Notes under the pieces: model-generated
Told to the model about the DNA's origin: nothing
Seen by the model: the letters and a program-made list of their open reading frames with translations, nothing else
Databases searched by the model: none
Assembly (NCBI GenBank): GCA_964648665.1
Contig: CAZYOA010000010.1
Location: forward strand, 1 to 62,962
Reading direction: 5' to 3'
Length of the DNA: 62,962 nt
Source of the DNA: an uncultured Planctomycetales bacterium
Lineage (GTDB): Bacteria > Omnitrophota > Gorgyraeia > Zapsychrales > Aceulaceae
Shown: positions 24,001-62,960 of the stretch, one piece after another
Position numbering within the stretch: position 1 is the first letter of the stretch
How the letters are laid out: every line of letters begins with the position of its first letter
Position numbers and translations under genes: made by a program

Positions 24001-27000
24001 AGATCCAGATGCTCTTATTTTTGCTAAAAGAATGAAAGATTTAGAATATGTCAAATTAAGCGATGGAATTCCGGGTATTGCCAAATTGGCTCAAGAGGGA
24101 AAAATACTTTTAAGCCATCATATTGGATGTTGTCTTGCAGATTCAAAATTGATCTATCCTTTTGTAGATAAGTTTATTCGATTTTACTTAAAGGAAAAAC
24201 CGATTTTAAAGTCGACAAAGACCTATTCTTTGTGTTCTGAATATGGATTGAGTCCGATAAAAGCTCAAGAGGCTATAAGAAAAAAAGACTTTTTGGTTCT
24301 TAAGCCGATTAGAGGAGACGGAGGAAACGGGGTTGTTGTAGGTGTTCATAACAATTTTAGGGTGTGGAAGAGAGCTTTGGAGGAGGCTTTTGATAGTCCT
24401 CAAGATTTCTTGTTATTTGAATATGTTAAACCTTTAATTATAAATAATCGCATTACAAGTCATCGCTTGATTGTTGATGTCATGCCAGATCTTAAATGGG
24501 TGACTATGCCAGGTATATATTTGAGAGAGGTTAGTTCTTTAGGAAGCGGCGTTATGAATAGAGGAGAATACATGACGCATTATATGATTGCTTTAGTAGA
24601 GGGAATATCAGAATCTTCAAGTGCGCTTTCTGTTTCTAAGCATCAGATACAAAGGACAATCTTCTCGTCATCTTCTATTATCGTTAAAGCTGATCCAAGA
24701 GTTTGGAAGAAAGCAAAAGATCTTCATCTAGAAGAGACTTTGGGCGAGGCGATTAAACATATTCAAGATGGTTCTGGAAGAATTAAGAAGTTAGGATGGC
24801 ATCATTTGAATCTAGGCCTTTCTAATAAAATAATAGAAATGGTTAGCATGTGTCAGCTCTTTTATAATCAGTATAATTTTTTATATTTTATTTTGCCAGA
24901 TCAGTCTATTTGTGTAATCGAAATGGTTAGCGTTACTGCTGCTTGGAAGGATCGTCAATGGCGGGAGAGTCTGAAGCGTGCTATTGAGCGTGTTTTAAGG
25001 CCTTTTATTGAGGATGAGAAAAGACACAAAAGCTCTGTGGATATGTTGAAAATATTTGTGAACAAAAATCCTGAGAATGTGAGTCTTGCAATGTTGAAAG
25101 AAAGGCCTTTTGTGGTAGTTAATTTCCCTGTTGATTCTACAGGTTCGTTAAAGGAACTTCTTGAGAAAGATGTAGTGAGGTTCGAGGACGTTAAAGGTAG
25201 CGATCAATTTGATGCTTTTGGGAAAGAAAATCCGCATTGTCGCGTTGGCATCGATATGGAGAAAGGTAAAATATTTTTCTCACCTTCATCTTTTAAAGGT
25301 GAGTCGGCGTCTTTCGATGCTTGGTTTACTGTTTGCTTGATAAAGCGATTTCTAGAAAAAAAGAATGCCTCTTCTTTATTGTTGATTAAATCGCATAAGA
25401 ATTTTAATTTAAAAGTAAGCTCGTTGATATTGCAAGGAGCGGCAGAAGCTAGTCTTTTTGGAGAAGAACAGCTGATTCGCAAATGCGAGGATTTGGCGCA
25501 AAGAGGATATTCTAGAGCTTCGATTGGTCTTGAGATAGAGATTGATCGTCCGCTAAGTTTTTGTTCTGAGAAAAGAATAAAAGAGATTATTCAGAATTCT
25601 CAAGACTGGGAAGCAATGCAATATATTAAATTTAGCCCTGATTGGCTTTGTGGCCTTCCTGAATTTGCTTTTGGTCCATCGTGGAGTTTTTCAACGCAAA
25701 TGTATTTGTGGGAAAAAATGAAGGAAATTTTTGGCCTTAACGATAGTGATGTTAATTCTGTGCAGATTAATGTTGGTCTTCCAGCGAATACACTTAGAAA
25801 ATGTTCTAAGATGGGATTTTTAAAAGATTCTAGGTTTTTGATGTTAGCTATTGTCGTAGCTTTTGTTAGCAGCAAGCGAGTAGAAAGAAAAAAGACAAAG
25901 AAAGTTGCTAACGTCGATATAGATGCTATTTCCATTGATGGTAAGAAGCAAGTGCGTATCGAATACGGCTTCGGAGATATTGAAAACTTATCGAAAAGTG
26001 GTTTTATTCTTCATCGTGTTCACTCTGCAATTGAAGAATATTACAGAATTTATCAGCCTAAGAAATATGATATTTTTGAATCTGATCAAGCGTTTCCTTT
26101 GGCTGCGGTTTGGCAGGGAAAAGGCATGCTAGAGTTTAAACCATTGTTGCAAGAATGTGTTTTAAATGGAATTCCAGGTCTAAATTTTAGAAATGCGCAT
26201 ACATTTGAAAAGCTTATTCCTTGGCGTCGAAAGCACCCAATCCTTGTTAACGAAATTCGAGAATTATTATTATCTATGCTGAGCGATTGCCAGCGAGTTG
26301 ACTTAGATTTTGCTGGCAAAGAAAAAGTTTTGTTAGATCCACCTTTTGATTTTGTTAATGTTCGTGCAAGCTCGTTGATATTAACAGAAAAAGATATAGC
26401 GTTATCAAGGCAGCATGGACTTGGCATTCGCTACGTTAGTCCTGTTGGTGGAGAAATTGTTGAAGAAAATGTGCGTGTTGTTGAAATTTTATATCGGGAA
26501 CACCCAAATTATCTTACCGAAAAGATTAATTTTATTGTTTTAACCGAGCAAAGAGCCAAAAAGTTCTTCAAGGATTCTAAGATGATTAGAGTAGCCTTTA
26601 GTGGTCATCTATCTCATGGAAGACAATTGTTTTATCCATTAAAAAATACGATAGATGATATTTATTTATATTTAGGCGTTAAAGGAGCCGGCGATTTAAT
26701 TTCAAAGTGTCTGACATATTCTATTTCAAGATATAGAAATACAGGATTAGCTTATTTGGATGATTTTCAGAATGCAAAGAATTTCACGGATATTCTTAGA
26801 GCGAAAGGTGCTCGCGTTCCTTTACATGTAGCCGCAGGCAAGATGAACCATGTTATTGATCAAGATGGCAATATTGTAGAATTTGATGACAGCATGAGAA
26901 GCTCTACGGCAGATCACGAAGCTGGATTTCAGCGAGATCCAAGTTTGCATTTTATTCTTTATGATTATTATGACAGATTAGGGTATTTAAAAGATGTTGT

Positions 27001-30000
27001 GAAGAAGGATCCAGAGCTTTTAAGAATCAGGGGGCAGCTTGGAAATTTATCGCAAGAACAATACTTTCTCCATATTATTAAAGAATTAGCTTATACCGAG
27101 GCTAAGAAAGTAGAATTAGGAGTTGCAAAAGTTTCATTTCATGAAAATGATATTACGCTTGCTGGAATGGAAGTAGATTGGGATGAGGCGGCTTATATAA
27201 AAGATGTTGATTTTGGTAGTCCATATTCTTCTTTAACAAAAAATATGCAGGAAAAGAAGTTTTATGAGAAACATGGATTTATTTTATTTGATTACAACAG
27301 AAAAATAGAGATCTTGCAAAGATTTCAGATTTCTTTAAAAAAGTACGCCTTGTTTGAAATTTCTAATATCAGTGTGCAGCAAGAATTTTATCGTACATTT
27401 CTAGATAGCTTAAGTCTAGATATGCGTCGCAAGGTTATTGCTGCCACTTCATCAAATATTAAAATAAAAACTGCTATAGCTAGTGATATCTCATCCATTC
27501 TATCTCAATTCAGAGCTTTAGAAGGACAGACTTATAATCACATGGACGATGAATTGTCCGCGTTGTATGCCGTTAGATCTGAATATGAGCTTGTTGATGC
27601 TGATCAAGGTCTTTTAAGAAATCCACTTAAAATCAGAGATAGCAAATTGAACGCTTGCGTGCTGTCTGATTCGACTGTTTCACAGGCTGTTGCTTATGGA
27701 GCGATTGATGGAGAACATATTCTTCACTATCAAGGATTGCATAGAATTTTATGGACTTATTTTAAAGAAAAACAAGAAATTGTGATTTCTCTTCGGGGGC
27801 AAAAAGGAGGGCACGCTATTAGATGGAGTGCAAAAGAGAATTCTGTTGAGATTCTTTTTGCGAGCGAGCGCCACGACAGAGGTGAACAAGGTTTTTATTT
27901 CGGCGATAGCATTCTTAAAGTTGAAGGTCAAGACGTTGTATTTAATATGACTACTTTTCTTGCTCGGCCAAAAGATGCATTAGATAAGTTCCAGCTTAGT
28001 AAATATGGTTTGAAAGAAATGCAAATCGTTCAGGTTTTAGTTCCTGACGAAATTCTTTGGAAAGAGGTGTTGGTTAATTGTTGGAGTGGATTGCTTCCAT
28101 TTTTACAAATGAGAATCCAGGTTGTTTCTCCATCTATTATTAATAGAAATCCACAGAATTATCCTTATTTTGTAGATTCGCCTATTTCATCGCCTCTTCG
28201 ACGCTCTTCCTTAATGATAATTCTAAAAGAAACATCTTCACAAAAGATTTCAGAAATCCTTAAAGCTTGGTATTCAAAGCCGCGAGAGCTTTCGCTTATG
28301 CCATCTGAAGCACCACAGCATCTTTATTATGTTGTCGAGGAAAAAGAAATTGTTGCTATTTTAATAGCAGCGTATCCGAACGACGCGACGTGGTCTGCTT
28401 TAAGAATGTTTACTGTTGATTTATTAAAAGACGGTTTTTATATTGATTGCATTGAAACAGATGAATCTGTGAAGGGCAAAAGATGCGGAGAGTTGTTGTT
28501 GCGTGAATTTGTTTATGATTATAAGAAACATGATATGCTTGGAGACGGCGGAGAATCTGGAGCGCGCTGGCAATCGGTTTGGGAGGACCTTAAATTTCAT
28601 GAGACCATACCAGGATTTTTCGTCCGAAAAGGTGGTGTGAGTTCATCAAACTTAGGATGTAGTTATACAAATAGAAAAGTAAAACGTCATCGCATGCTTT
28701 GGTTGATTAGAGCAATCTCCGATTATGATAAATCATTATTTGACGAAATCAAAACTTTATTTCGAGGGGATAAGAAGAAGCAAAATATTTTAAATGTGAT
28801 TAATGATCATCGAGATATCGGTATTACAAGATTGTATCAGCGTGTTGATGGAGTAAGTTCTGCAAGGAAATTGAATCAACTGTTTGATAAGATGATTGAA
28901 GGCATTTTAAGGGGGCGCCCTAAAGCAAAAGAATTGTATTTAGAGGCTGGTGCGCTCTTCGAAGGTGGATATGAGCATGTTGAGCAAATAACAAAAGAGG
29001 ATGTGTTTAATATTATTTGGGTTTTGTATCAAATTGGAATTGAAAAAGAGAAAGAGCTTGATCGATTAATTATGCTATTTCCAGCGGCGATTAACCAGGC
29101 TCGATACAATCATGAGGCAGGAATTATTTCGGAAATAGGAGGCATTGTTCGAAAAGCCTCTCTTGGGATATCTCTAGCTGATATCATTGATCAAAGACAG
29201 AAATCGAACAAGAACTTATCTTTAGCGACGAATAGCAGGCAAGTCTTTGCTTATCTTTTGCATTTCGCACAGATTCCTTGTGTTGCTCAAAAGGTTTCTG
29301 AGTATCGCGAACAAAGCAAAGAAGTTGACGGGATTGTCAAGGAAAGCCCTCGAATTGCGCTTTCAAAGGTAAGAGGAATTATTCAGAATTTCTATTCTTT
29401 AGATCCGAAATCTTGGAGACGTCTTAAGAAAGATTTCTTTCATCTTCCTTCGATGCAAAAGTTGTCTAGAGGTAGGGGTATCTTTAAGAAGAAATTAGGT
29501 GAAAGATGGTCTGCTCTAGAGTATCAGGTTCAAGGTGGAGACCGTAGCCGTGAGGTTGTAACTTTAAGAGAAGATTTCAAGCTAGAAGATATACAGGTTA
29601 GCCTTAAGCAGGTACTTGAGCACCCTCTTGTTCAGTCTGAAATTTTGAATAAAGAAAAATATCCTACAGGTAAAGAACGTCGCCGTATCCTTAGAAGTAT
29701 TCGAGGCTACATGGAACACGCGCAAAAGCATGTAAAAAAAGAATCGTATCCACAAGCACTTGACTTTTATCAGAAGGCTAAAGATTTGATAAAAGGGTTA
29801 GGCTTTGATGCTAGAGCCGTTCGATCTTTAAGTGAACGCATTGATAGTGGGTGGGCAGAAGTAGAACGCTTAAGAATTGAACAAGAGATGCATAATTTTC
29901 GGTTAGATGTAGTTGTTGTGAATGAATCTTCTGTAAATGAATTTTTCTCTCCCCTTAGTCCGCATTTTGAATTGTTTTCTTCCTTCCCAAAAAATCAATG

Positions 30001-33000: not shown

Positions 33001-36000
33001 TGATAATCCTGATTTTCGGCGTGCTCGACAATCATTAAGCTTTGCAGGCTGGCTGATAAGAACCAAGGGTGACTTAGACATTGCTAAAAGACAAATACAA
33101 TCTATCAAGTTTGCAACCTCTAGATCTCAGTATTTAAACTCATTTATGCATATATTTCGAAAGAGTTATATTTTAGATAAACTTGATGGTGAAGGGTTTC
33201 CAAAAAAGAGAATTTTTAATTTTGCTTATAAAAAGTTTATGTTGGAAAATAAAATGTCGTTAACGTGTGTACAGGCGAACATGTTACATGTTCTTTTTTA
33301 CTCTTGCGTGTTTATTCCTTTTAAGATTGATTCACTGAAGAAAAAAGGAAAACGAATTAAAAATCCTTTATTTTCAGCTTTTTTATCTTTCATGGAAATC
33401 CAACAGCTTGCTTCTTTTAATTATCTTCGTAAGGACACAAGAAAGAAAATTCCCGCAACTTCAGCATGGATAGATCAATTTATAAAAATGGGCAAAGAAA
33501 ATTTTTATTGTTTATCTCAAAGAGAACGAATGAATATTATTGATGCTTTAGTTGAAGATTATGCGTTAACAAAAGAAGACCGTTCTCATATTGTTTTTTC
33601 ATCAATCTCAAAAGAAAGACATGAAAAATATTTATTTGATAAAGCTTTTCAAGTTGTTAAATCAATTGAAAGCTTGTGTCAGGAAAATAAATTTGATTGG
33701 TTTGATGAAAGAATCAAAGAAAAAATAGAAAACTTGATTTTCGAAATTCGTCAGAATCTAGAAATTGAGAGAGGTATTGTTTCTGAAAAGATTATTGAGA
33801 TTTTGCAGATGGTTATTCTAGAGTCATTTATCCCTGAGTACGACACAAATATTTTAAAGATTCTTTATGAACTTGTTTTGTACCAAGACATGTATCTAGG
33901 GCCAGAGTGGAGCAACTATATTGTGTCGTTGTTAAGCCGACAACAGGAATTCTCACCTGATTATGAAGATGTTGTAAGAATGGCTATGGTTGTTTCAACG
34001 CAAAATCTTAAAAGAAAACCAGATAATAAAAGAAATAAAAAAAGTAGTTCACAAATTTCATCTTTAACGTCGGTAAAGCTCCTTGGTTTTACATTTAAAA
34101 TAGATGATAAGAGCGCGGCATGCGAAGGAACTCAAGGAATTAAGCTTATTGCTGAATGGAATGATGAAAAAAAAGCTGGCATATCGGATATTTATATTTA
34201 TAGTCAATTTTATAAAAATGGAGGCCGGTCTTTAAGAGGTGTTTATATTGATTCTCAGTTTCAGGGTCTTGGTTTTGTTTATCCTGTTTTATCGATGTTT
34301 TTTAGTATATTTAAAGATGTTCGATCAACACATCCTCTGTTGGTTTTTCCGGGATTTCTAACTCTTTTAAGAAATGAATACGGATTTTCTCCTGAAAGAA
34401 ATGAGGAGCAAAATGCTGTTTTTAGCCGAAGTTTAGATGAAGGAAAGCATTTAATTTTCTTTTTTGATCAAGATGTCGAGATGCTTTTTACTGATCGAGG
34501 AGCTCAAGTTTTACATAAATATCGAATAGTTAGGAATGTTAATCAGGTTAGAAATCCAATTCCATTGTTTTTAGGAAATCCACTTGTTGTAAAAAAGGAA
34601 CAAAAGTTTCAAGATTCTATTTCGCGATATCCATTCGAAATGGTTTCAGGAAAACCAGAAGATCTAGCATTTGGTGTTTCGAAAAGTTCTTCATTGATAA
34701 AATATGATTTTCTTACGCGTCTTAAGCAGTTTGATGGCATGGTGATTGAAATCAACGATTATTATGGGGCGCCAAATATACAAAAACAAGCCATGCTTTT
34801 AAGAAGAGCTGTTCAGGTTCAAAGGCTTCGGCGCACTTGTAAGCAAGAATCCTTTTTTGTAAATAAAGATGACTGCTTTAATGATACTTTGATAAAACCT
34901 GGCGATCGCATTCAATGGCTTTTGTTTGGTGGCCTTTTGCGGGCTTGCCTTGTGGATATGTTAAAAAAGATTCTCAAGCATGAGAAAGCTTTAACAAGCG
35001 AAGCGAACTTAGTTTTTGCGTTACCGCTTTTTGCTATTAATACGCGTTATCGATTCTACAGGGCAAATGATATAGGTGAATTTCGAGACTATCCGCATCC
35101 TCAAAAAATTCCGCAACTTCTTGCCGAGCATTCCACGCGAGGAGAATTGACAACAGGAAAAGAAGACGATGTGCTGTATGGCAAAGATTATTTCACGTTA
35201 GATTATCCTAAACAATATACAGCTGTGATTCGTAATAATGGTCAAATTTTGCGTGTGATTCCCGCTCAAGGTAAATTAACTTTTACCTTGGATTTTTTTA
35301 CATCGTTTGAATCTATGGAAGAACATGCTTTTCAGGCACTTGCTTCATCTGCGATGATTTTGTCTTTCGGTTTGAGAAGCCCTATGGGAAAGTTACTGCT
35401 TGTTTCTTCATCGGCAAAGAGAGTGAGCTCGTTTTGTCTTGAAGGTGGGCAGGGGTCTTCAACTATTCAGGTTGCGTCTTCAGGCCAAAGTTCCTATCCT
35501 GCTAGGTCTAGTGTAGAAATTATGAAACCGCAAGTTTCTTTAGCGGACATTAGAGCTTCCTCAACGGTTGGTAATCAATTAAATTTTAGAACTTCTGAAG
35601 GGGTATTGTTATCCGAAGAGCCTCGAAAGCTTCCAAGCCATATTCGCCAAAGCGTGCTACCAAAAGGTAAAACGATTGTTGTCATGGGGAAAAATGTTGA
35701 GCGCGACGCGGGGCAGACAATTGAAATGTTAATGAAGCACAACACTGTCATTTTGATACTAGCTGACAAATCTATCGAAACGGAGAAGGCGCTCATTGAA
35801 GCAAACCCAGATATTATTATTGCCCCAGATAGAGACAGCGTGTCTGAAGCGCTTATTCAGGAGTATTGCAACAAGCAAAAAAGAGAAGTCAATGTTCTTT
35901 ATTATTGGAATCTGGCAGCCATGTTGCAAGGAAACCACATAGATGTTTCTCAAAAACCAAACTTAAGTGTGGCCGGTGAGCATATTCGCCTTGTAGTAGA

Positions 36001-39000
36001 ATCGATACAGGCTCATGGTACACAAGTTCCTCGTAAGGATTTTCTTTATAGGACAGCTTATGACCGAGGCGTTGAATATATATCCAAAGCCTCAGCCATG
36101 ATCGCAGAGCTTTTAGGGCTTAATTTTACGTCTGGAAAACACGCAAATAATTTTGTTGTAACTAAAATAACAAAGAGAGGCAAGCTTCTCGCGCCGGATT
36201 CATTCAAGAGATATCAAATTGTTTTTAACGGAGAAAAAGAAAAAGACGGGTTTGAAATTATTGATATGTATACAGGGCAGCCAGTCTTATTTATTTCTCC
36301 CCATCCAGATGACCCTGAAATCTCTGCAGGATTCTTGCTCATTTTTCTTCTAATTCAGGGTGCTTCGATTCACAATATTATTTATTCATCTGGAAAGAAT
36401 GGTGTTGTTGATGATGATCCTCTGCTAAAAGAGCTTCGCGAGAAGTTTAGTTTTGAGCCGGAAATGGCCAAGGCTATAATAAGAACGTTTGAGGCTGGGC
36501 AATCAGCTATGTTTTTACGTTCGGCTTTATTGGCTTTGGGAAAACTTAAAGGTGACATTGAGGTCTTGAGCTTAACGGCAGATCAGATATTTTCTAATGG
36601 CAAAGAAAAAGATACTCGTCTTTATAAAAGGTTTTCGGCAGTCTTACAGAATCATCTTAGGTTTAGAGCAAGCTCGAAAGAAGGAATCAACAAGCCAGAT
36701 CTACCATTTGTTGTTGCGCTTACTCATCCGGTTGACAGGCATCCAACGCATATTGATGCCTACAAGAGGAGCATTAAGGTTCTTCATCAGTTAGCCGTAA
36801 AGTATAATATTGAAATTCAGATTATCTATTATATGCCGCCATGGCAAGGGGATTATGACACGTATTTTCAATCTTCATCTAAACAAAAAATAGAGGACGT
36901 TGCTCGTTTAAGCAAAGAGGATCAGATTACAGCATTGATGTCTCAGGGAATGGCTTATTTTACTGCAGAACTCACTATGAAGGCGTTTGGAGCTAAGGTT
37001 CCTTTCCTTAAGGATATGGGCGGAGAACGTGTTGAGCGGTTTAGAAGAGGTGTGGTTAGAGCGTCTTCCTCAGCAATCGATTGTAAGTTTTTAATACATT
37101 TTTCCAAGGTCAGAAAGTCGCTTTCAATTTATTCTTGGGAAGGCGGCTCTTTGGAGCAAAAAGAAAGAATTGAACGCTTGCTTTCTGGTTTAAGCCAAGT
37201 TATTCCTAAAAAACATTGTGAGTATTTAAAATATATCCACCTACGCTCTGGTTTTGTTTGGAATAAATTTACGGGTCTCTTTACTCGAGCGGGGGGAGGT
37301 ATGGTGCGTGATAAGCATGGGATTATTTTTTATAATATAGATTTGCTTTCAGATTATGAGCTAAAAGAAAAAATATTCCACGAGATTGGTCATTTGGTTC
37401 AGCGTCATCTAGATAAAAAGACGAGAAGAAGTTGGCCAGTTAGTATGATTACTCACCTTGACGTCTATGCTCCCAGGGCCCTTGTTACATCTCTCATAGC
37501 TTTATTAATAATGGTTAACATGTTCGGCATGCACGTTTCTTATCATGTTCCAATTGCCCTGTTTATTTTCTATTATTATTATTGGTTTTTTGCGCGTCGA
37601 ACCATGCGGAAAATCTTATCATTACAAGGAAGTTATGTTTCCGATTACGCCACTCATAATTGTAGCGAAGATTTTGCAGAAAGTTACAGGTATTATTTTC
37701 TTTATCGCAATGAATTTTTCAGTAAGGCTAAAAAGAATGACATATTGAATGTTAAATTCAAGATACTGCAAGAAGAAGAGGAAAATGCCATTTCCTCGCC
37801 GGTAGTTTCTTTGGGAACAACAATAGCTATTGTTGGCCTTGGTAGATGGGGTCAAATTTTGGTAAAAGTGTTAGATGATTTTCTAGAATATAATATTATT
37901 GGAATTGCTCGCAGTAATTATGAAGAGCTAAAGAAAAGAGGGCCTCTTGGTGTAAATGTCAAAATACTTAGTCATAAAGATTATCAAGTGCAAGTATTAA
38001 ATAATCCTGATATAAAAATAGTCGTTATTGCTACTCAGCCTTCCAGTCATTATCAATTAACCAAAGATGCTCTTTTAGCAGGGAAGAATGTTCTTGTTGA
38101 AAAACCATTTGTACAGAGCTTGGAAGAAGCGCAAGAGTTAATAGGGCTTGCCAATAGGAATAATCAAGTTTTGGCTGTTGGGTATGAGCTTATGCATGAT
38201 TATTATATTAATTTGCTCAAAGATATTATAGAAAACAAAGCTATTGGGCGTGTTATCGGAGCCGAGATTAATATTATGAATTTGTCTTTAGAAGAAAAAT
38301 TGAACATAAGCGTTAATGTTGTAGAAGAATTGGGTGTGCATGCTTTTAGCATTGTTCAAGTTCTTTTTGGGGTGAGAGAAACGACGGAACTTTGTGCTCT
38401 TGTAAAAGAAAATAAAGCTCAGGTTGGATTTATTCATGATGGCATAAAGGTAATGATAAATGTTTCAACAGAAGCTCAATATAAAAAAAGAACAATTATT
38501 GTCAAGGGAGACAACGGGACAATTGAATTAGATTATGCTATTGGCAGTTTTATAGCGAAAGATAATTATGGAAATATGATTAGTAAAGATGATCTAGGGC
38601 TTTCAGAGCAGTTGTTGGCTAAAAAAAGAAATTCACCTTCAACGTTGGAGGCCGAATTTAAATTGGTTTTAAAAGCAATCGAGACAGGTAGTGAACTTAT
38701 TAATAGTGCTGAGAATGTTTTGTGGATAACAGCTCTAACTAGCCAGATTAATCATCTTGTCTTGGCAGAGAATGGAGTGTTGCCTGCAAGTTTTTATGAT
38801 ATAGATATTAGCAAGAATATGCCTCAAGGGAAAGCAGAGGCTTTTATTAGAGGAGAATATACAGAGTATCCATTTAAGGTTGAATTTTATGTTGGAACAC
38901 ATTGCCCCGGAAATTGTATATTTTGCCCAAGAAATGTTGATGGGGAGATGTGTAATTATGATACGGAGGCAGAAGCTGGCTTGGTTAAGCTTTCACCCGA

Positions 39001-42000
39001 ACAATACACTAGATTGGTTTATGATTGTGCTGACAACGGAACAAAAGAAATTGAAATAACCGGAGGGCTCGAGCCGCTTACTGATGTTTCTGCTGTGATT
39101 GCAATAATTAAGGCTGCAATAAAAAAAGATTTAATAGTTTATATTTATACTTCAGGAATTCCAAGGCAATTTCAGGTAGGTATGCCTTGGTTACTTAAGA
39201 CAAGTAAGGTGAGGATAAGCTTGCATGCTGCAACGTCAGGGACATATCATAAGGTTGTTCGGCCGAGCACTAAGGAGGAACAATCTAAGAGAATATTTCT
39301 TTCGGTTTTAGAAAATCTGCGTTTACTCGTTGAAAAAAGAAATAGTGATCCAATATCCAAGACTTGCCTGGGGATTAATATTGTTTTAACTGAGTTTAAT
39401 TATCATGAAATTGTTTTGATAGCTGATTTGGCTTATGATTTGGGATTAGATTTCTTGGATATTCGTTTAGATTTTCAAGATAGTGAATATTTTACACAAG
39501 AGCAAGAAGCAGAGCTTGTAGGTCTTATGGGAAAGCTTCGTAGAAATACGAGTGAAAAGAAATATGGAGATTTAAGGATCAGTTTTCCTGTTTGCTTTCT
39601 TCCTTTTGATGGTTATTTTATCAAATGGCAAGATTATCCAGAAGACGTAGATACATATTCTGAGTTTGGAACATACCCCTTTGAAATTATAATTGATCCT
39701 TTTGGAGGTGTATTTTTTACTTCTACATCTGCAATGCCAGGTAATCGTCATCTTGACATTCTTGAAAACAAAGAATTAGGTGTCGTAACAGGTAATGCTG
39801 ATGAAGAAATTAAGATGATATTAAAAAAAAATATAGAAAAAAGAAGAAAATTTAAATTTACTGCAAAAGAATTGAATGTTTTTACTAGAAAAATGTTGCT
39901 TGATTTAAAAGCGATAGAAAAATCAACAGGTAGCAGTGTTTTGATTGCTCAAGAAGTTCTTAATAATTTTTTTAATAGAGGAATCGTTTTGGAAATAGTC
40001 GATTATGAGCATAGTGCGAATGCTCCGCCGCAAGGCGTTATCTCCTCGCCTGTGAAATTTATACTTGTTGCAAAGCTGGATTCTTATTGTTTTGACTATG
40101 ATTTTGAAGATACAATGTATGTCTTAGAAGCTCTTCCATCAGATAAAAATTTGAAGAGTTTTCTTGATAATCAAGACATGGAATTTGCCTTTGTGATGAT
40201 GATCACAAATCAAGGTCCAAAGTTGTTTATGATTAAGGGGCGAACAAGTAGGCAGGCTGTGCATATTCAAAAATTAATTAGGAGCGTGTTGAGTAGTTAT
40301 AAAGGAAAGATATTATTTGCATTACATAATCATCCTATTGGTGCAGGTTACTTTCCGAGTAGAGGTGATTTTATGGGAATGATTGTGGAGTATGATGATC
40401 TAGTTGAATTGGTTGAGAAATTTTACCTGTACAGTCCTTTTCATAGAGCGTACATAGAATATAGCAATAAGAAAGAAGTAGAAGATGAAGTTCTTCGATT
40501 TAAAGTAGAGTTTTCAGATGGGAATTCTGATGAGTTTCATTTTGAAGAAACTTATAGCTATTTCTTTAATTATCCTTTTGATCCAAGAAAGGAGATTAAG
40601 CTAGATAATTCCGCTGTTAACGAGGAGTATATTAGGTTTGTTGAGAAATTAGAAGAAAGACGAGTAATGTTTTTAGGATGGGTATTAGATGGGGCAAAAA
40701 AAATAATCATAGAATCGTGTATTGGAAATGTGGCTATTTGGCATAAAGATCTTAACCTTCTTAATGATTTCGCGCTCAATGTCAATAATGATTCAAGATC
40801 ATATTTGCGAAAAGTAAGCTTGGTGATTGATAGATTTGATTTAAGTTTTTTAACTTATTTTTCGAATAAATCTTTTCTTTCGTCGGTAAAGAAGACAAAT
40901 CTGTTTTGTTTTCGAGGCGGACAAGAGCCTCCAACTGTCCAGGCTGTGTCTTCAAGTATTGCTTTAACTTATATGATAGGCTCTGGCTGCTTGACGTTTG
41001 CGGCAGAGTTTTTAGGAAATTATTTTGCTACTAAGAAATTTGATCTTAAGCATGCTTTGCCATTTTTTGTTTTTGGCGCGTTGGCAGGATATGAGTTTAT
41101 TTCATTAACGGATTTTGTTTATGTTCAGATACCTTTGCTTAGCTTTGGAGTGAATGATATTTTTAGGGCTGTATCGCTTATGGTGATAGGAGGATTCATT
41201 GGAGTTCAGTATTTATTATTTAATCATTTATTGCACAAGATCTTTCTTAGAGACAAAGACCTGACCGACGAGGCAGAGCTTGATTTTAATCTTAAGAATC
41301 AAATGAGAAAGATCGTTAAAGTGTCCCCTGTTTTAGGTCTCATCATTTTCTTAAAATATTTTCTTATTCAGCGTTTTTTGCCAGAATTGTTACAGCCAGC
41401 TGTGCTTATGTTTTGGGGCTCTTTAACGCTTGTTGTAGCTAGTTGGGCTGCTAACTCTGAGAAAGTCGTAGTTTACAAGGAGTTGCTAGATAAGGTTAAG
41501 GGGCGGATAGGAATGAGTTCTAAAAAGCATAATTTAAAAAAGTCTTCTAGCTCGCTCCTGGTTTCGAGCAATATGCGAAATCCTTCATCTAGTCTTCGTC
41601 GTCATCGGATGGTTTGGTTAATAAGGTCTATTTCTGATCACCTTCCAGAAGTATTTCAGAAAATTGAGAATAAATTTAATGAAAATTCTGATTATGTGAA
41701 TATTTTAAAAAGTCTTAATGATCTTCGAGATATTAGAATTTCTGTTATTCACACGCATATTCATATGGACACACATAGATTTGATCGGCTTTGGGATAAA
41801 ATGATTGATGTTGTTTTAGAATCCATTGATGAAGTAAGAAGTCTTTATGTTGAGGCGGAAACACTTTTTATCGATGAAAGCGACTCTGTTGATAAGAATT
41901 TCAAGGGGGAAGATTGGAGTGATATTGTATGGGTTTTGTATTCGATGAGCATTAACGAAAAGAAAAAGCTAGAACGTTTTCTTGTTTTGTTTCCCGCAGC

Positions 42001-44062: not shown

Positions 44063-44139
44063 AATAATCCGATAGAATAATACTATTAATATTAATATTT
44101 ATAAGAAGTAAACCTACACTCTTTATTGGAGGCTGCGGT

Positions 44140-45864
44140 ATGCAGGATTGTTTAACGGTTTTTCTTAAAAAATATTTTTGTAAGCTGATTTTGTCTTGCA
44201 AATTATTTTTTAAATCAAGATTAATAGAATTTAGATCTCAATATAAAATTTGGGCTAAAGCTTCTCTTCCGTATCTAGGCATTTTCATTGCTTTAGCGGC
44301 TTGCTACAACACTGTTTTTCGTTATGGCTATGCGCATCACGATGAAGTCAATTTCTTTCTTTATGGAAAAACTTATATTCTTCACTCTGTAAGACTTTTT
44401 GTCTTGTCTATGGGGCGCTTCATTGGCGCTTATATTGCTACGGGTTTAAATTATCTTGTAAATTCTTTATTTGATCTTAAGGTGACACGCTTTTTTATGA
44501 TTGTTCAGCTTTGGATTTCTGCTTGTATTTTGATGCGATGGCTTAAAAGTCATTTTTTATCAAAGCGAGATGCATTTCTTTTTAGTGTCGCACTTTTTAC
44601 GCTTCCTTCTTTTGAGATTATGGCGTCTTTTGCGGCAGGATTTAATAATTCAACTGGCGTTTGGATGGGGCTTTTGTCTGGAGTTCTTGCCTTTGGCATG
44701 TCGATTGAAGGTACAATTTTATCCCGTATCAAATCAAAGTCGTTTATTTTCTCTGTCATATTCTTTATTTTAGGTCTCATGGCTTATCAGCCTTCAGCTG
44801 TGATATTTTGGATTATTCCAGCACTAGTTATTTTGTTTTCATCTTTAGATAAGTTTGAAGAAACAAAACAGCGCTTGATTAATATTTTTGTATCTGGTTT
44901 TTTTGCGTTAGGGATTTATTTTCTTATTCTTCAGGTTTTCAAAAAAATGCTCTCGCAAATTGCAGGAGGGTATAACCCATATAGTCTTTCGACTGATTAT
45001 TTTGGAAAAATATATTGGTTTTTCTCAGAAGCGGTTTCTAATTGTCTTAATTTCTGGAATGTCTTTCCTAAAAGTTTATATGTTGTCTTGGCATCAGTTT
45101 TTATAGGATTTTTAACTCTTGTTATTTTGACTTTACGAATCAAGAGAGCGCAAGAGTCTAAAGAGGTAAAGAGCATCAGCATTAAGATTATAATTCTTTC
45201 TTCTGTGTTTTTATCGTGCCTGTTCTTAAGTTTTTTACCAAATCTCTTATCAACAGGAAATTTTGCATTTTATCGATGTCTTTCGGGACCAGCAACAATT
45301 ATTCTTGCTTTGCTTGTTTGGGGCATTTGGCGCATGACACAAATTTTAAAATTTCAATCGCGAAATGTTTTTTCTCTTTTGCTGGCGATTTTAATGATTT
45401 TCGGACTTCTTAGGGCACATCATAACGTTTTTCGTTATATTGTTTTTCCAGGATATATTGAAATGGATGTTATGAAAAATGTCTTGAGAAATGAATTTGA
45501 AACCTATAAGCGAATTCATATTATTCATGCCGATCAAGACAAGTTGAAAACTTATTATGATGAATTTGGACTTGTATCATCGAGCATGGCACAGAATCGA
45601 TTAGGCTTGGTTTCAGGCGGATATACTGAGATTTTTAAGCAAGATAATATGTTTCTTTATGGCATTCTTTTTGATTTTGATTTGCAAGAAGCAGAATTTT
45701 TATTTGTTCGCAATGACGATAGAGAAAGTGGTTTAGCATTTAAAAAAATTATTACAAGTTCAGCAAAAAAGCTTAAAACACCTTTTGATGAGCCAACTCT
45801 TGTTATAGACATGACGCGCCTTTATAAGACGGGTGCTCCTCTAGAATATCTTTTAATCCCATGA
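44140..45864 (+). CDS. Polytopic membrane protein, GT-C / glucosyltransferase GtrII-like
   Basis: About 10-11 hydrophobic helices, an acidic HHDE loop after TM1, AYQ and FYR motifs, and a soluble C-terminal tail. GGAGG RBS near 44128. Confidence 0.6.
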   Translation: MQDCLTVFLKKYFCKLILSCKLFFKSRLIEFRSQYKIWAKASLPYLGIFIALAACYNTVFRYGYAHHDEVNFFLYGKTYILHSVRLFVLSMGRFIGAYIATGLNYLVNSLFDLKVTRFFMIVQLWISACILMRWLKSHFLSKRDAFLFSVALFTLPSFEIMASFAAGFNNSTGVWMGLLSGVLAFGMSIEGTILSRIKSKSFIFSVIFFILGLMAYQPSAVIFWIIPALVILFSSLDKFEETKQRLINIFVSGFFALGIYFLILQVFKKMLSQIAGGYNPYSLSTDYFGKIYWFFSEAVSNCLNFWNVFPKSLYVVLASVFIGFLTLVILTLRIKRAQESKEVKSISIKIIILSSVFLSCLFLSFLPNLLSTGNFAFYRCLSGPATIILALLVWGIWRMTQILKFQSRNVFSLLLAILMIFGLLRAHHNVFRYIVFPGYIEMDVMKNVLRNEFETYKRIHIIHADQDKLKTYYDEFGLVSSSMAQNRLGLVSGGYTEIFKQDNMFLYGILFDFDLQEAEFLFVRNDDRESGLAFKKIITSSAKKLKTPFDEPTLVIDMTRLYKTGAPLEYLLIP

Positions 45865-47096
45865 TCAAAGAAAAACAATTAATTCCTGAACTTGTTGCGC
45901 CGGCTGGTGATTGGCCAAGCCTTATTGCTGCTATTGAGAATGGTGCAGATGGTATATTCTTTGGTGTTAAGGGTTTGAACATGCGAAACTTGGCAAGCAA
46001 TTTTGATCTTCTAGAAATTAAAAAAGTTATGAGTTTTTTGCGTAAGCATGACAAAAAAGGATACTTAACTTTAAATATTGTCGCAAAAGATAGTGACATT
46101 GCGTTTGTTCAAAAGATTTTACAAGAAGCAAAAAAGGCAAAAGTTGATGCGGTTATTTTATGGGATATGGCTATTCTGTCTTTAACTAAAAAGATAGGAT
46201 TGGATATTCATCTGTCAACGCAGGCAAGTGTTTCGAATTTAGAATCTATTAAACTTTATGTGAGCCTTGGAGTAAAGCGTATTGTTTTGGCTCGGGAATG
46301 TACGTTAGCAGATATTAAGAAGATTATTAAAGGGATTAAGAAAGAAAAAGTTGATTGCGAGATTGAAACTTTTATCCATGGAGCGATGTGTGTTAGCATT
46401 TCAGGCCGATGTTTTATGTCTGAGCTTACTTTTGATAAATCAGCGAATCGTGGAGAATGCTTACAGCCTTGTCGACGAGAGTTTGTGATTAAAGATGTGG
46501 ATAATGAAAGCGAATATATTTTAGGTAAAGATTATGTGCTAAGTCCAAAAGACTTGTGCAGTATTGATTTTATTGATGATTTGATTAAAGCGAAAATTCA
46601 TTGTTTTAAGATTGAAGGACGCATGCGTTCGCCTGAGTATATTGGCGTGACAACATCAGTTTATCGAAAAGCAATGGATGCTTATTTTAACAAAAAATTA
46701 AATGTGGCTCTTAAAGTAAAATTTAAAAAAGAACTTCAGACGGTTTATAATCGAGGCTTTTCATCTGGATTTTATTTTGGTATGCCTTCAAAAAAAGATA
46801 TGAGCAAAGGCCTTGGTCATAGTCATGAAAAAGTTTATGTTGGGGATGTTAAGAAGTTTTATAAGAAATTAAGTGTTGCTGATATTCGTATTCGCACTAA
46901 AGAAATAAAAAAAGGGGATATCATTCTTTTTTTAGGTGCCAAGACACCAGGGTATCGTTGTAAAGTTTTAGAAATACAATCTGATCATCACTCCGTCCAA
47001 AAAGGTCAAAAGGGAGATGCCGTTGGCATCAAGCTTCCTTTTATCGTTCGGCCAAAAGATAAAGTTTTTCTTTGGAAAAAGAAGAAGAAAATCTAA
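45861..47096 (+). CDS. Peptidase U32 family protein
   Basis: PELVAPAG, ADGIFFG, STQASV, RIVLARE, ETFIHGAMCVSISGRC, NRGECLQPCR, FKIEGR, YNRG. ATGA overlap with the upstream gene. Confidence 0.93.
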   Translation: MIKEKQLIPELVAPAGDWPSLIAAIENGADGIFFGVKGLNMRNLASNFDLLEIKKVMSFLRKHDKKGYLTLNIVAKDSDIAFVQKILQEAKKAKVDAVILWDMAILSLTKKIGLDIHLSTQASVSNLESIKLYVSLGVKRIVLARECTLADIKKIIKGIKKEKVDCEIETFIHGAMCVSISGRCFMSELTFDKSANRGECLQPCRREFVIKDVDNESEYILGKDYVLSPKDLCSIDFIDDLIKAKIHCFKIEGRMRSPEYIGVTTSVYRKAMDAYFNKKLNVALKVKFKKELQTVYNRGFSSGFYFGMPSKKDMSKGLGHSHEKVYVGDVKKFYKKLSVADIRIRTKEIKKGDIILFLGAKTPGYRCKVLEIQSDHHSVQKGQKGDAVGIKLPFIVRPKDKVFLWKKKKKI

Positions 47097-47509: not shown

Positions 47510-50500
47510 ATGAGAAATTTTTTCATAGTCAGTGTTGTCATTATATGTGTTTTTTTGAATCTTTCAATTCCACAATATGTATTTGCTGTTTCTGATGATG
47601 TGCGTCGCACTGATGTGGTTTCTAAAGGAGCAGATCCTTTGGTTGATGCTGAGTACGGTGTCGAAGTATTTACGCAGCCAGTAGATGATTTTTTGCTTCC
47701 GAATGACTATCGAAAGGATCGTATTATAATTCGCTTTAAAGAAGGCTCTGGTCTTGGTGCTGTTGCTGCTGATTTGGTGAATGAGAAGATGAAATTTGAA
47801 ACAGTTACTGGCGATTGGGCGCTTGATAGCATTAACGAAATGTATGGTGTAGTTGCAATAAAACCGTTAATTACAAGTGAACTATTTAGTTTGCAAACAA
47901 AAAAAACAACGCGTTTTTCTTCTGATATAGCACAGGCATTAGAGATTCGGAGAAATGCTCATATTGCGACGAGTATCGTAGGTATGAATGCTCGCTATCC
48001 TGACCGCGCACGGTATGCGGATAGTGCAAAACAAATTGCCATTGCGACAAAACTTTCTAATACATTCATTGTGACATTTGATGCAGATAAAGATAACCTC
48101 CAAGAAATCAAGGCGGCATATATGCAAGATTCTGCTGTCGTAGAAGCTGAGCTGATACAAGCGGTGTATGTTAATTTTGAGCCAACGGATCCGTATTATT
48201 CATCATCAGGAAGCTGGGGGCAAGATTTTTCAGATATGTATGGTTTGCGTCCAGATTTTCTTCATTGTGGTGATCCTGTTGAAGATGAAGGTGCATGGGC
48301 GCAATCAAAAGGAGAAGGAATCGTGGTTGCGGTTATTGATAGTGGTGTTGATTATAATCATCCTGATCTTGTTGATAATATGTGGCAGGATGCAGAGGGA
48401 CATTACGGATATGATTTTGCCAATGGCGATGATAATCCTATTGATGATCATGGTCATGGAACGCATTGTGCAGGGACTATTGCTGCAGTCGAGAATGGTT
48501 TTGGAGTGATTGGGGTTGCGCCATCTGCAAAGATTATGGCAATCAAAGGTCTCAAGGCTAGTGGTAGGGGATATACGGATGTACTTTCCGCAGCCATCAT
48601 GTATGCTGTTGAAAATGGTGCTGATATATTAAGTAATTCGTGGGGTGGTGGTGGCAATTCAGGTCTTCTTACAGAGGCGTTTGATTATGCACATGCAAGT
48701 GGGTGTGTGAGTGTTGCTGCAGCGGGAAACAGTGCGCGTGATGCTGCGTATTTTACGCCTGCAGGAATACAGAGTGTTATTACTGTTGCTGCAAGTGATT
48801 CAAATCACGAACGTGCAAGCTTTTCAAATATTGGTACTAAGATAGACGTGTCTGCGCCAGGTGTTGATATCCTTTCCTTAAGAGCTGCAGGGACTGATAT
48901 GTATGGTACAGGAACTCATATTGTGAATGATGATTATTATTATGCAAGTGGAACATCAATGGCGTGTCCACATGTTGCAGGTGTTCTTGCCGTAATCAAA
49001 TCTGCTAATCCTGATTACAGTAATGAGGAATTACGTTCTGCATTGCGTGCCTCAGCTACAGACTTAGGTGCGATAGGATTTGATACCCAGTTTGGTTCTG
49101 GATTAGCGAATGCAGATGCAGCACTTGACATTGTGTCACCGATTGCTGCAAACATCTTTTCAATTGAACAGATTGATAATCAAACGATTGAGGTTCGTGG
49201 TGTTGTGTATGGAGATTCATTTAGTTCGTATTTCCTTGAATACGCAGAGTCGTTAGAAGGACCATGGATGACGGCAGACAATATTGTTCCTGGAGAAAAA
49301 CAAGGGACACTTAATCCTGACGGGAACATCAGCTATCCAGTTTTGGGTACTGTTGATCCAGAGGGATTATCTGGATTCGTGTATGTGCGTTTGACTGGGT
49401 ATGATCAAAGCAATGATTCTTATCAGGATTTCATTAATACTATTATTATTGAAGAGCAGAAGTCAGGGTGGCCAGTCAATGTGTTTGACGAGGAGCAAGG
49501 TATATCCGCTTATCCTATTTTTAGCTCACCAATGGTTGCAAATATTGATAATAGTGCTGATGGTTCAGAAGAAGTTATCGTGAATGCTATCGGCGGGTTG
49601 TTTGTTTATGATGCAAATGGGACTATCCTGAGTGGCTGGCCTAAAAATTATTTATGGCCGCAAGGGAGTGGTGGTTTTTCAACACCAGCTATTGCTGATC
49701 TAGATGGTGATGGTGATATGGAAATTATTGCAATGGGATATGATGGTTCAGGCTCTGTCGGGGATTTAACTATTTTTGGCACTAATGAGCCTGTCGCAGG
49801 ACTTCATATTTGGCATCATGATGGCAGTCGTTATAATGATCAATGGCCACAAACATTGGAAAATCATTTGCCTGGGTTACTTAGATTGACGTATCTTGGG
49901 TATTCCTCTCCCAGTGTCGGCGATATTGATGCTGATGGCGCGCAGGAGATTGTTATTGCAGTACGATATGGTGCAGGAATGGGAGGAGAAACCCGCTGTG
50001 CTCTTTTGGCATTTGAACAGGATGGCAGTTTAGTTGTTGACTCACAGAATACTACACAATGGCCGCGTTTTCTTAGTGTAAATAACATTCTCAGCGGGAG
50101 ATTGTTAGAATGCTCGCCAACGCCGTTGCTTATTGATTTGAACCATGATGGTATGCTTGAAATTGTACAAGGAGTTAATTTCAGGAATCAATCTGTTATA
50201 CCGCGAGAGTATTATTCAGAAATAAAGGTGTTTGATGCGTATGGGAATACTCCCGAAAACACGCAGTGGCCTTGGATTTCTGATACAGTGACTTTGGGTA
50301 ACAAAAATTTAGTTGCAGGAGATGTTAACGGTGACGGAGACATCGAAATTATTGCGCAGACGAGTTCTGGAGCAGTAGGATACCCTACAACGAAGATATT
50401 TTCTTGTGAAGGTGACGAGATAGCAAGTATTGGTGCTTGGGCAACGCTTTCAGCTAACTTTTCTCTTGCAGATATGAACGACGATGGGACGCCTGAAATT

Positions 50501-62733: not shown

Positions 62734-62782
62734 TTTGTATTTTGTGGGATTATTCTTTAGTGCTTTTCTAGAAGAAGAAAAG

Positions 62783-62866
62783 TGCTGGAGGAGGGAGTTG
62801 AACCCTCATGCCCGCGAAGACACTGGTTTTTGAGACCAGCGCGTATACCAGTTCCGCCACTCCAGC
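62783..62866 (-). tRNA. tRNA-Leu: tRNA-Leu(CAA)
   Basis: GCTGGAG acceptor, D-arm GGCGGAACTGGTATACGC, anticodon arm CTGGT-CTCAAAA-ACCAG, long variable arm, GGTTCAACTCC. CCA is not encoded. Confidence 0.95.
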
Positions 62867-62884
62867 AATGATCTTATATGTATC

Positions 62885-62960
62885 TGGTGGAGCTGGAGGG
62901 ATTTGAACCCTCGACCCCTTGCATGCCATGCAAGTACTCTCCCAGCTGAGCTACAGCCCC
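62885..62960 (-). tRNA. tRNA-Ala: tRNA-Ala(GGC)
   Basis: GGGGCTGTAGCTCAGCTGGGAGAG, anticodon arm CTTGC-ATGGCAT-GCAAG, GGTTCAAATCC, ends TCCACCA. 76 nt. Confidence 0.97.

Follow-up and report, generated by a model that had tools for sequence, protein, structure and literature searches.

The window analysed here is a 62,962-nt stretch (contig CAZYOA010000010.1, positions 1–62,962 of the forward strand, assembly GCA_964648665.1) from an uncultured bacterium of the phylum Omnitrophota, and its principal feature is a giant open reading frame (ORF; positions 2–44062, plus strand, with a TAG stop at 44060–44062) that encodes a chain of heterologous modules including several transmembrane (TM) segments. 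The subject of this report is the short junctions that separate these modules. In multi-module genes of related Omnitrophota, junction cassettes have been copied or recombined as DNA; within the window, one double junction was duplicated as DNA, and the junctions at large share a Ser-Ser core. The reading that we favour, with somewhat better than even confidence, is that a DNA-level process acts on junction cassettes, together with gain and shuffling of modules, and that the cassettes decay to a protein-selected Ser-Ser core. Amino-acid positions in the giant protein (14,606 aa) are counted from the first ATG, at 242, upstream of which there is no in-frame stop.

The duplicated double junction and the Ser-Ser motif

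A first-pass annotation of this DNA had singled out two junctions, at 35432–35482 and 40904–40954, as matching in 38 of 51 nt but in only 9 of 17 residues, and both the counts and the positions were reproduced. Self-BLASTN at a word size of 7 extended the match to 76 nt—ungapped, in frame, and 68.4% identical, with an E value of 3e-5—and, besides two tandem repeats and one paralogous module pair, this is the sole significant internal DNA repeat. The two copies, J1 (35407–35482, plus strand) and J2 (40879–40954, plus strand), are both in frame and share the layout of a Ser-run, a 22–23-residue spacer, and a second Ser-run; the spacer of J1 has 22 residues (AKRVSSFCLEGGQGSSTIQVA), and J2, which lies between a JAB/RadC-like module and a TM module, reads SS-VKKTNLFCFRGGQEPPTVQAV-SSS. 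From the two peptides and the codon usage of the ORF, 29.9 ± 2.5 of the 51 nt are predicted to be identical, versus the 38 observed (P about 0.001), and over the full 76 nt the predicted and observed values are 39.1 ± 3.3 and 50 (P 0.0004). The first- and second-position changes to which the annotation drew attention are indeed present, the differences being distributed over the three codon positions as 5/4/4 in the 17 codons and as 7/9/8 in the 25 codons of the longer match (12 of 25 residues identical); in a control comparison, a constrained module and its relative differed by 0.27/0.20/0.43 at the three positions. Because the nucleotide identity exceeds the prediction from the peptides and the differences are flat across codon positions, J1 and J2 go back to a duplication of DNA and did not arise by convergence on one peptide motif. 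The spacer peptide drifted almost neutrally after the duplication, with the frame and the Ser-runs being kept.

The modules flanking the two copies are unrelated by self-BLASTP, as had been claimed. The suggestion of a repeat family within the window did not hold up, a profile of J searched with nhmmer finding just J1 and J2 and giving E > 2 for the next matches. At the J1-orthologous position in a related locus, L091, the preceding double junction is shared and J is not. A second related locus, L089, contains a 1,169-aa ORF that ends (3575–3599) in ...RNSSSAFC*, with a Ser-run three residues before the stop; this ending recalls the SS..FC start of J, which might accordingly be the relic of a gene end, but the resemblance is too short to evaluate. 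A double-glycine (C39/JAB) cleavage site, FCxxGG|Q, was also considered for J and set aside as speculation, given two copies and no detected C39 domain.

Two pairs of shorter exact strings had been reported as well, and their positions were confirmed: CTTCTTCGAATCTTTCT is restricted to 10446 and 15027, and AAGCTCGTTGATATT to 25417 and 26368. The first string, of 17 nt, lies in the junction KRSSSNLSVK (10439–10468, plus strand), which has the SSN[L/I/F] form, and in its partner KKASSNLSKK (15020–15049, plus strand); local nucleotide identity of the pair is 26/36 versus 17.8 ± 2.6 expected, and self-BLASTN gives it an E value of 0.2. The second, of 15 nt, is a direct repeat bracketing a single module, described below as ligase-like, with one copy at the N-side junction KVSS/LILQG (25417–25431, plus strand) and the other at the C-side junction RASS/LILTE (26368–26382, plus strand). 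Compared with protein-preserving synonymous shuffles, exact repeats of at least 15 nt show no significant global excess (12 versus 7.4 ± 2.9), those of at least 17 nt number 2 versus 0.8, and the repeats of at least 15 nt are mostly off-junction. Repeats of this length with a whole Ser-Ser in both copies number 2 versus 0.12 expected (P 0.003), or versus 0.21 (P 0.03) under a stricter stratified null in which run and near-run codons were shuffled among themselves. The short-string pairs, selected post hoc and of marginal significance, are probably more decayed remnants of shared junction DNA. Thus, with respect to the codon-bias null that the annotation itself had raised, J1/J2 exceeds it, whereas the short strings are marginal and there is no global excess. 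One in-frame exact 17-mer, ACAAGTAGGCAGGCTGT (RTSRQAV), recurs off-junction at 9302–9318 and 40244–40260, in the beta-propeller and the JAB-like module; the count of 17-mer repeats lies within the shuffle null.

At the protein level, almost all of the ~50 junctions share Ser-Ser(-Ser) in the preferred context [K/R/A/V]-S-S-(S)-[N/L/I/A/V]-[L/I]. The tripeptide SSS occurs 40 times versus 6.6 expected, with no other residue so enriched, and the contexts SSN[LIF] (11 versus 0.9 expected), [KR]xSS (39 versus 11), and [AVG]SS[AVSIL] (24 versus 5.4) show the same tendency. The SSS excess is limited to the giant ORF and the multi-module ORFs of relatives, ordinary neighbours, including a 1,726-aa S8 protease, being without it. 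Ser-runs are often paired, with 43 gaps of at most 25 aa versus 24 ± 3.8 under random placement, and 'double junctions', in which paired Ser strings stand 5–30 residues apart, are frequent. Only 1 of 51 strong runs lies inside a Pfam envelope, versus 7.0 expected (P 0.005). Some runs abut domain starts or ends directly: SSS-KLVAHR opens the GDPD domain, SSSS follows the last propeller blade, and a 475-aa ATP-grasp module is bracketed by SSS. In a structural model of the ligase-like module, furthermore, the folded core begins right after Ser-Ser 8393–8394, with the C-side Ser-Ser lying in low-confidence coil.

The codons of these runs are heterogeneous. Among the runs of at least three Ser residues, 18 of 35 mix AGY and TCN codons and 2 of 35 are codon-homogeneous, which excludes a conserved DNA string and rules out replication slippage as the origin of the runs. 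Junction windows have a mean pairwise nucleotide identity of 0.377 versus 0.353 for redrawn codons, and this excess (2.4 points) is almost wholly a TCT/TCA preference; the Ser codons apart, most of the ~50 junctions have no DNA in common. Orthologous junctions also differ in codon choice (AGT TCA TCA versus TCC TCG; AGC TCG versus TCC AGT), and since orthologous Ser-runs use different codons, including AGY/TCN switches, the comparison shows Ser-Ser to be kept by protein-level selection. Thus, the claim that junctions share DNA, and not just a peptide motif, stands for J1/J2 but not for most junctions, which encode Ser-Ser in both codon families.

Exchanged modules and junction cassettes in relatives

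Related loci were reached via the gene immediately following the giant ORF, a syntenic anchor encoding 574 aa (44140–45864, plus strand; a member of its cluster is named glucosyltransferase domain-containing protein), with relatives at 64%, 61%, and 28%. The upstream gene in these loci encodes 1,169 aa (L089) or 3,354 aa (L091), not 14,600 aa. Both carry modules of the giant (37–62% identity) next to different neighbours, and homology ends flush with the Ser-runs on both sides. The GNAT-like module (aa 9324–9466; 28211–28639, plus strand), which is bounded by RRSS on one side and SSS on the other, is 62% identical to a module of the L089 1,169-aa ORF, where both of its neighbours differ, and the module just upstream of J1 (aa 11498–11693; 34733–35320, plus strand) is 37% identical to part of the L091 3,354-aa protein. 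The ASS-spacer-SSS double junction after the latter module is conserved in L091, and the sequences diverge beyond it.

An exhaustive HMMER search with four modules (aa 8395–9470) against 1.84 billion representatives returned 15 proteins only, all matching the first, ligase-like module, with the three other modules being without homologues; a word-indexed homology search with aa 11482–13782 gave no match. The position of the ligase-like module varies widely across these 15 multi-module proteins of 432–4,635 aa, and Ser-runs flank it in the closer relatives (P0005–P0008, P0011, and P0016), whereas distant homologues are without them. The expectation that domains are shuffled between relatives, with homology stopping exactly at the junction strings, was thus borne out, and the comparisons support an exchange of modules exactly at junctions among relatives.

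Cassettes were observed at the P0011 locus, here L096, of an Omnitrophota metagenome-assembled genome (MAG; NCBI GCA_016208765.1, JACQXK010000004.1, 1–22317). This locus contains at least 13 copies of a cassette of ~60–200 nt, with 80–95% nucleotide identity, across four consecutive multi-module genes. The copies fall between domain envelopes, all 8 long copies have the same frame relative to their genes, and the L096 homologue of the ligase-like module is bracketed by two 92%-identical copies. The cassette encodes the peptide I[FL]NS[DN]EGASSAVLK[EG]PSFPNNLETVS[KE]SIGTVGKRGASSA... and has a palindromic core, AGTTTCC-N10-GGAAACTGTTTCC...AATCGGGACAGTGGG, that is flanked by the direct repeat GCN TCC TCG GCG G (A-S-S-A); partial copies break at these ASSA motifs. 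Differences among the copies amount to 0.16 at third positions versus 0.08–0.10 at first and second positions. The flanking direct repeat (TCCTCGGCGG, GCNTCCTCGGCGG) could be a target-site duplication but need not be one.

The four L096 genes encode 5,170 aa (cut by the locus), 613, 2,981, and 1,106 aa, with gaps of 17–51 nt. Their boundaries fall within cassette copies, one of which spans the stop and the start between two genes, and the copy at 8072–8147 continues in the frame of the next gene; the four genes are probably one giant ORF broken by real or assembly frameshifts. In another Omnitrophota MAG, L097, a distinct cassette of 147 nt is repeated at 92.5% identity and has a partial third copy, the 3 copies being 85–92% identical overall; it contains perfect palindromes with 12-bp and 9-bp arms, and Ser-runs bracket it here too.

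The core of the L096 cassette recurs in 90 metagenomic stretches, versus roughly 1 expected by chance according to our own estimate. In L098–L177 (for example, L117 at 1170–1260, L142, L146, and L107), it takes the form of GGAAAC(A/T)GTTTCC arrays whose period is 23 nt and which end in AATCGGGAAAGTGGG; most of these arrays are non-coding, often directly upstream of a Shine-Dalgarno sequence (SD) plus ATG, and in at least one other lineage the core element is in frame, the ORF being open across a 6.6-kb locus. A recurrent location is the gap from a ComM-like gene's end to the SD plus ATG of the gene that follows. The core array may be a repetitive extragenic palindromic (REP)-like element or an operator array. 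Overall, the first-pass proposal of a recombination or repeat element that adds domains in frame was right in kind for the relatives, with only fossils of such a process in the window. Its more specific suggestion of a repeat resembling Rickettsia palindromic elements (RPEs) agrees with the multi-copy, in-frame, palindromic cassettes of L096 and L097, whereas the window has only two diverged copies.

The giant gene, its modules, and its neighbourhood

The giant frame comprises at least 14,686 stop-free codons from base 2, the first in-frame codon of the window. Because the frame is open up to the first base, the gene is 5′-truncated here; in other assemblies the gene call continues for ~300 nt more and reaches the contig edge, which suggests an assembly break within the gene. 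The ORF was recovered independently in ENA, JGI, and Logan assemblies. Assemblies L001–L008 differ from the window by 0–7 single-nucleotide polymorphisms (SNPs) per 21.7 kb, as the same strain, with none at junctions. The public run X2 contains short contigs of a second strain, ~90–95% similar to the window, seen as SNP clusters at 36181–36247, 37006–37010, and 41242–41338, with the junctions unaltered. Apparent 'joints' in Logan contigs were rejected as spurious 20–22-nt overlaps from unrelated high-depth contigs. Within the first 116 nt of the window lies a tandem repeat of 63 nt (83% identity) that codes for an (A/S)xEPxKQ(E/D)APEET motif.

A neighbouring ComM gene has 67–69% identity to Candidatus Omnitrophota MAGs (best genome matches), and every homologue with a name, whether of a module or of the anchor gene, comes from Omnitrophota (Candidatus Omnitrophota or Ca. 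Aceula lacicola); the window gene is thus a Candidatus Omnitrophota 'multi-enzyme' giant gene. In a 2026 preprint (bioRxiv 10.64898/2026.06.07.730766), class 1 Omnitrophota giants are described as 'multi-enzyme metabolic cluster' proteins. The present gene resembles them in phylum, in length (>10,000 aa), in having many enzyme Pfams without a dominant one, in its radical SAM, HD, GNAT-like, and methyltransferase-type content, in its TM segments and adjacent peptidase genes, and in being sequence-unique with very few homologues; it differs in that searches of the portion of the ORF inside the window detected neither a C39 nor a SecA domain. Lying in an Omnitrophota genome as a single ORF of at least 10,000 aa with many Pfams, it falls within class 1, and it likewise corresponds to the giant genes described by West-Roberts et al.

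The protein begins with a coiled-coil part of ~1,900 aa, followed by unrelated modules with much Pfam-dark sequence between them, and comprises roughly 40–50 heterologous modules. Pfam searches identified 13 distinct families, none dominant by copy number; beta-propeller, RelA_SpoT, GDPD, HD_4, CP_ATPgrasp, HD, PIG-L, Peptidase_Mx, GFO_IDH_MocA, Radical_SAM, and RadC/JAB were found once each, and hydropathy places several TM segments along the protein. The carboxylate-amine-ligase-like module (aa 8394–8693; 25421–26320, plus strand) has a PafA/YbdK/glutamine-synthetase-like fold according to the structural model and a fold search; the model, based on a multiple sequence alignment and covering aa 8340–8760, has a mean predicted local distance difference test score of 73, with aa 8394–8693 as its confident core. 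The paralogous module pair consists of aa 9480–9878 (28679–29875, plus strand) and aa 13785–14180 (41594–42781, plus strand), at 32% identity. An internal Tat-type signal peptide (NRRKFIKMSAGGAGALGFFAAFG...AQA; 8798–8851, plus strand; aa 2853–2870), read directly and weakly matched by Pfam TAT_signal, stands 27 aa after an SSS junction and precedes a TolB-like beta-propeller (9038–9967). The persistence of this internal signal is a sign that the module was once a free-standing exported protein and was captured whole.

Further repeats within the ORF include a tandem 93-nt duplication at 7258–7443 (88% identity), encoding two copies of ...NEIDQREE.LK..VLLGLFPEA.LAVLK..., and about three internal repeats of ~110 aa at 13985–14719 (aa 4582–4826; 25–26% identity). 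Paralogous TM-plus-helical modules at aa 3261–3421 and 4175–4326 precede the RelA/SpoT-like and GDPD modules. Beyond the final SSSS junction, the closing ~230 codons (aa 14377–14606; 43370–44059) have an odd Cys/His/Arg/Pro-rich composition, and Pfam assigned no family to this tail. The TAG stop directly abuts a motif, AATAATCCGATAGAATAATA (stop and motif within 44060–44095), which L089 and L091 have conserved in their intergenic DNA upstream of the anchor gene; read-through into once non-coding DNA may have given rise to the tail.

Several stretches are candidate peptidase modules. The ORF contains an HExxH zincin-like stretch, HEIGH, beside TM helices (aa 12380; 37379–37393), a JAB/MPN (RadC-like) module (aa 13330–13368), and a His...Cys stretch, FVHGKG...VVLCCNEG (aa ~2700–2760), for which a Pfam scan of aa ~2640–2823 gave no family match. 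Directly downstream of the giant ORF are genes for a U32 peptidase (45861–47096) and an S8 peptidase (47510–52666). The internal stretches and the two downstream peptidases are all candidates for processing of the megaprotein. Across the ORFs downstream of the giant gene, Pfam identified U32 and S8 peptidases, PAP2, YkuD, AccA, RlmN, and GT2. In the S8 protease gene, two adjacent 257-nt repeats (51551–52071; 92% identity) encode tandem PKD domains, and tRNA-Leu(CAA) and tRNA-Ala(GGC) genes occupy the minus strand at the end of the window (62782–62960).

Competing explanations and significance

Under the favoured reading, junction cassettes would propagate as DNA alongside the gain and shuffling of modules, and a module recombining into an existing junction would come to have junction sequence on both its sides. 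The relatives would represent a recent stage, with multi-copy, near-identical, in-frame, palindromic cassettes and A-S-S-A direct repeats. The window would represent an old stage of the process, for which reason the decayed cassettes would have left nothing but the selected Ser-Ser core and a handful of DNA fossils. With less certainty, the core may serve as an inter-module hinge or a candidate proteolytic processing site. A stronger version, in which a dedicated junction system of palindromic cassettes with Ser-Ser-coding repeats, serving as sites of recombination or insertion, captures modules much as an integron would, but within one reading frame, and in which the core doubles as a cut site, the system being decayed in the window and active in L096, is doubtful in our judgement.

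The closest precedent is provided by RPEs and in-frame intragenic transposable elements of the miniature inverted-repeat type (MITEs), palindromic repeats inserted in frame (review PMC10969869). Like these, the L096 cassette with its core, and in part the L097 cassette, is ~75–200 nt long, in frame, palindromic, and encodes a conserved peptide, and the L096 core also occurs in non-coding DNA. RPEs, however, are spread over many unrelated ordinary genes, whereas the elements here cluster at the module junctions within giant or multi-module genes, with Ser-Ser on either side; for the window, two diverged copies, no clear palindrome, and no copy outside the ORF are further differences. Integron arrays share with the present system heterologous units separated by imperfectly palindromic repeats, and a module between direct junction repeats is the remnant expected from a single crossover by a circular unit. 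In contrast to integrons, with their separate promoterless genes, the units here are fused in one frame, and the cassette sequences are lineage-specific. The integron-like mechanism proposed in the annotation found no support in Pfam scans of the window ORFs, which reported no integrase family (the ComM ORF lay outside the scans), and RYYYAAC/GTTRRRY core sites were not apparent on reading J or the L096 core, no pattern search having been run. The element is closer to RPEs and MITEs than to integrons. MARTX, viral, and ribosomally synthesized and post-translationally modified peptide polyproteins also consist of unrelated enzymatic units with short recurring-motif linkers, paired motifs around spacers, and nearby peptidases. 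The MARTX traits of a C80 cysteine protease, RTX repeats, and type I secretion genes were not found by Pfam in the ORF tiles and neighbours in the window, and Ser-Ser is here a candidate cleavage site.

Several observations weigh against the favoured reading. Three of the ~50 junctions are DNA-related, two of these by short, marginal, post hoc matches; the boundary from GFO_IDH_MocA to Radical_SAM has no motif, so not every junction has one; and the Ser-Ser motif may be no more than a preferred composition of linkers. With nhmmer, the profile of J found no copy in the ~19 kb outside the ORF, the 63-kb window being the portion of the genome searched, nor in related loci, and the single-sequence folding energies of J are ordinary (z of −0.4 and −1.75). 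DNA and peptide profiles of the L096 cassette gave no match in the window, and the palindrome GGAAACNGTTTCC has 3 matches there at 2 mismatches, which is chance level. Because J stays within the ORF and the window has none of the relatives' cassettes, what connects its fossils with those cassettes is to be regarded as analogy across lineages rather than homology. Presence/absence polymorphism of orthologous modules or cassettes was not observed among the assemblies compared, which represent one strain; no recombinase or transposase was identified; and the ORF breaks inside the L096 cassettes might be assembly errors.

According to a protein-only account, junction strings and cassettes resemble each other as copies of one functional peptide (for protease recognition, as a hinge, or for docking), their DNA likeness comes from ordinary segmental duplication within the gene, and there is no DNA process specific to junctions. 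This account is not negligible but is rather unlikely. It draws on the clear protein-level selection of the Ser-Ser core and on the third-position differences in L096, which are about twice those at first and second positions, so that the cassette peptide is evidently constrained; it also fits the protein cleavage proposed for giant-gene products, with cleavage points given as unknown, by West-Roberts et al. (bioRxiv 10.1101/2023.11.21.568195), as well as the U32 and S8 peptidases directly downstream and the HExxH and JAB-like modules in the ORF. However, the spacer of J1/J2 is without peptide constraint and yet exceeds the nucleotide identity that its peptides predict, the L096 and L097 cassettes contain perfect palindromes and columns invariant at all codon positions, and the L096 core is mostly non-coding elsewhere. 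Moreover, since the cassettes join unrelated modules, duplication of a module was not what carried them along. A different origin, which we consider improbable, is that neighbouring genes were fused by read-through and that the cassettes are former intergenic spacers with REP-like palindromes. The complete internal Tat signal 27 aa past a junction would suit such an origin, as would the non-coding state of the L096 core in most metagenomic contigs, where it closely precedes an SD plus ATG, the four consecutive large L096 genes with boundaries inside cassette copies, and the stop of the giant ORF abutting an intergenic motif conserved in relatives. Fusion does not explain, however, why repetition in L096 extends over the entire ~200-nt cassette, with its coding-like flanks and ASSA repeats as well as the palindromic core; the window has no such intergenic repeat, and its Ser-runs abut the first residues of domains without a start-codon or SD relic. 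Because relatives have these modules in quite other orders and contexts, shuffling would in any case be needed besides the fusion of neighbours.

Chance combined with codon bias, that is, Ser/Asn/Leu usage in an AT-rich gene plus a short peptide motif without common descent, is very unlikely as a general explanation. It accommodates the mostly off-junction repeats of at least 15 nt and their lack of a global excess, as well as the post hoc choice of pairs and the E value of 0.2 for the 10439/15020 pair, but it is refuted for J1/J2 by the BLASTN and peptide-conditioned tests (E 3e-5; P about 0.001), and exact repeats between junctions number 2 versus 0.12–0.21 expected. We give scarcely any credence to the idea that the junctions are structured RNA or DNA signals, with hairpins acting on the transcript or template, for example where RNase cuts, where a pause occurs, or as a palindrome bound by protein. 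An 8-bp inverted repeat does fall on matching columns of the two copies of J (15 of 16 cells paired), with one compensatory and two G.U-to-G-C changes, although a comparison of two sequences has no power; the perfect palindromes of L096 and L097, whose stems do not vary and whose loop is variable in one copy, point in the same direction. On the other hand, J folds no better than ordinary sequence, and RNA structure in J was rejected on the ground that the 5 compensatory pairs found by RNAalifold are close to the numbers from column shuffles (3.7 ± 1.6) and from coding paralogue controls. Rfam likewise found nothing in the giant ORF.

The Ser-Ser junction motif, the cassettes, and the module boundaries are undescribed in the searched text of both giant-gene papers, and a literature search combining Omnitrophota and palindromic returned no description of the motif or the cassettes; neither result is proof of novelty. 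The 2026 preprint reports a repeat scan for tandem nucleotide repeats only. How Omnitrophota giants gain domains, and whether and where their products are cut, are questions that this literature explicitly leaves open. A Ser-Ser junction code would allow sequence-based splitting of megaproteins for structure prediction and annotation, with the junctions themselves being concrete candidate cleavage sites, and the relatives' cassettes offer a candidate mechanism, at the DNA level, by which modules accrete and are shuffled. If the motif is merely a favoured linker and the cassettes are ordinary dispersed repeats, the finding would be a useful annotation aid; if the favoured reading is true, it would describe a bacterial analogue of exon shuffling via RPE/MITE-like repeats.

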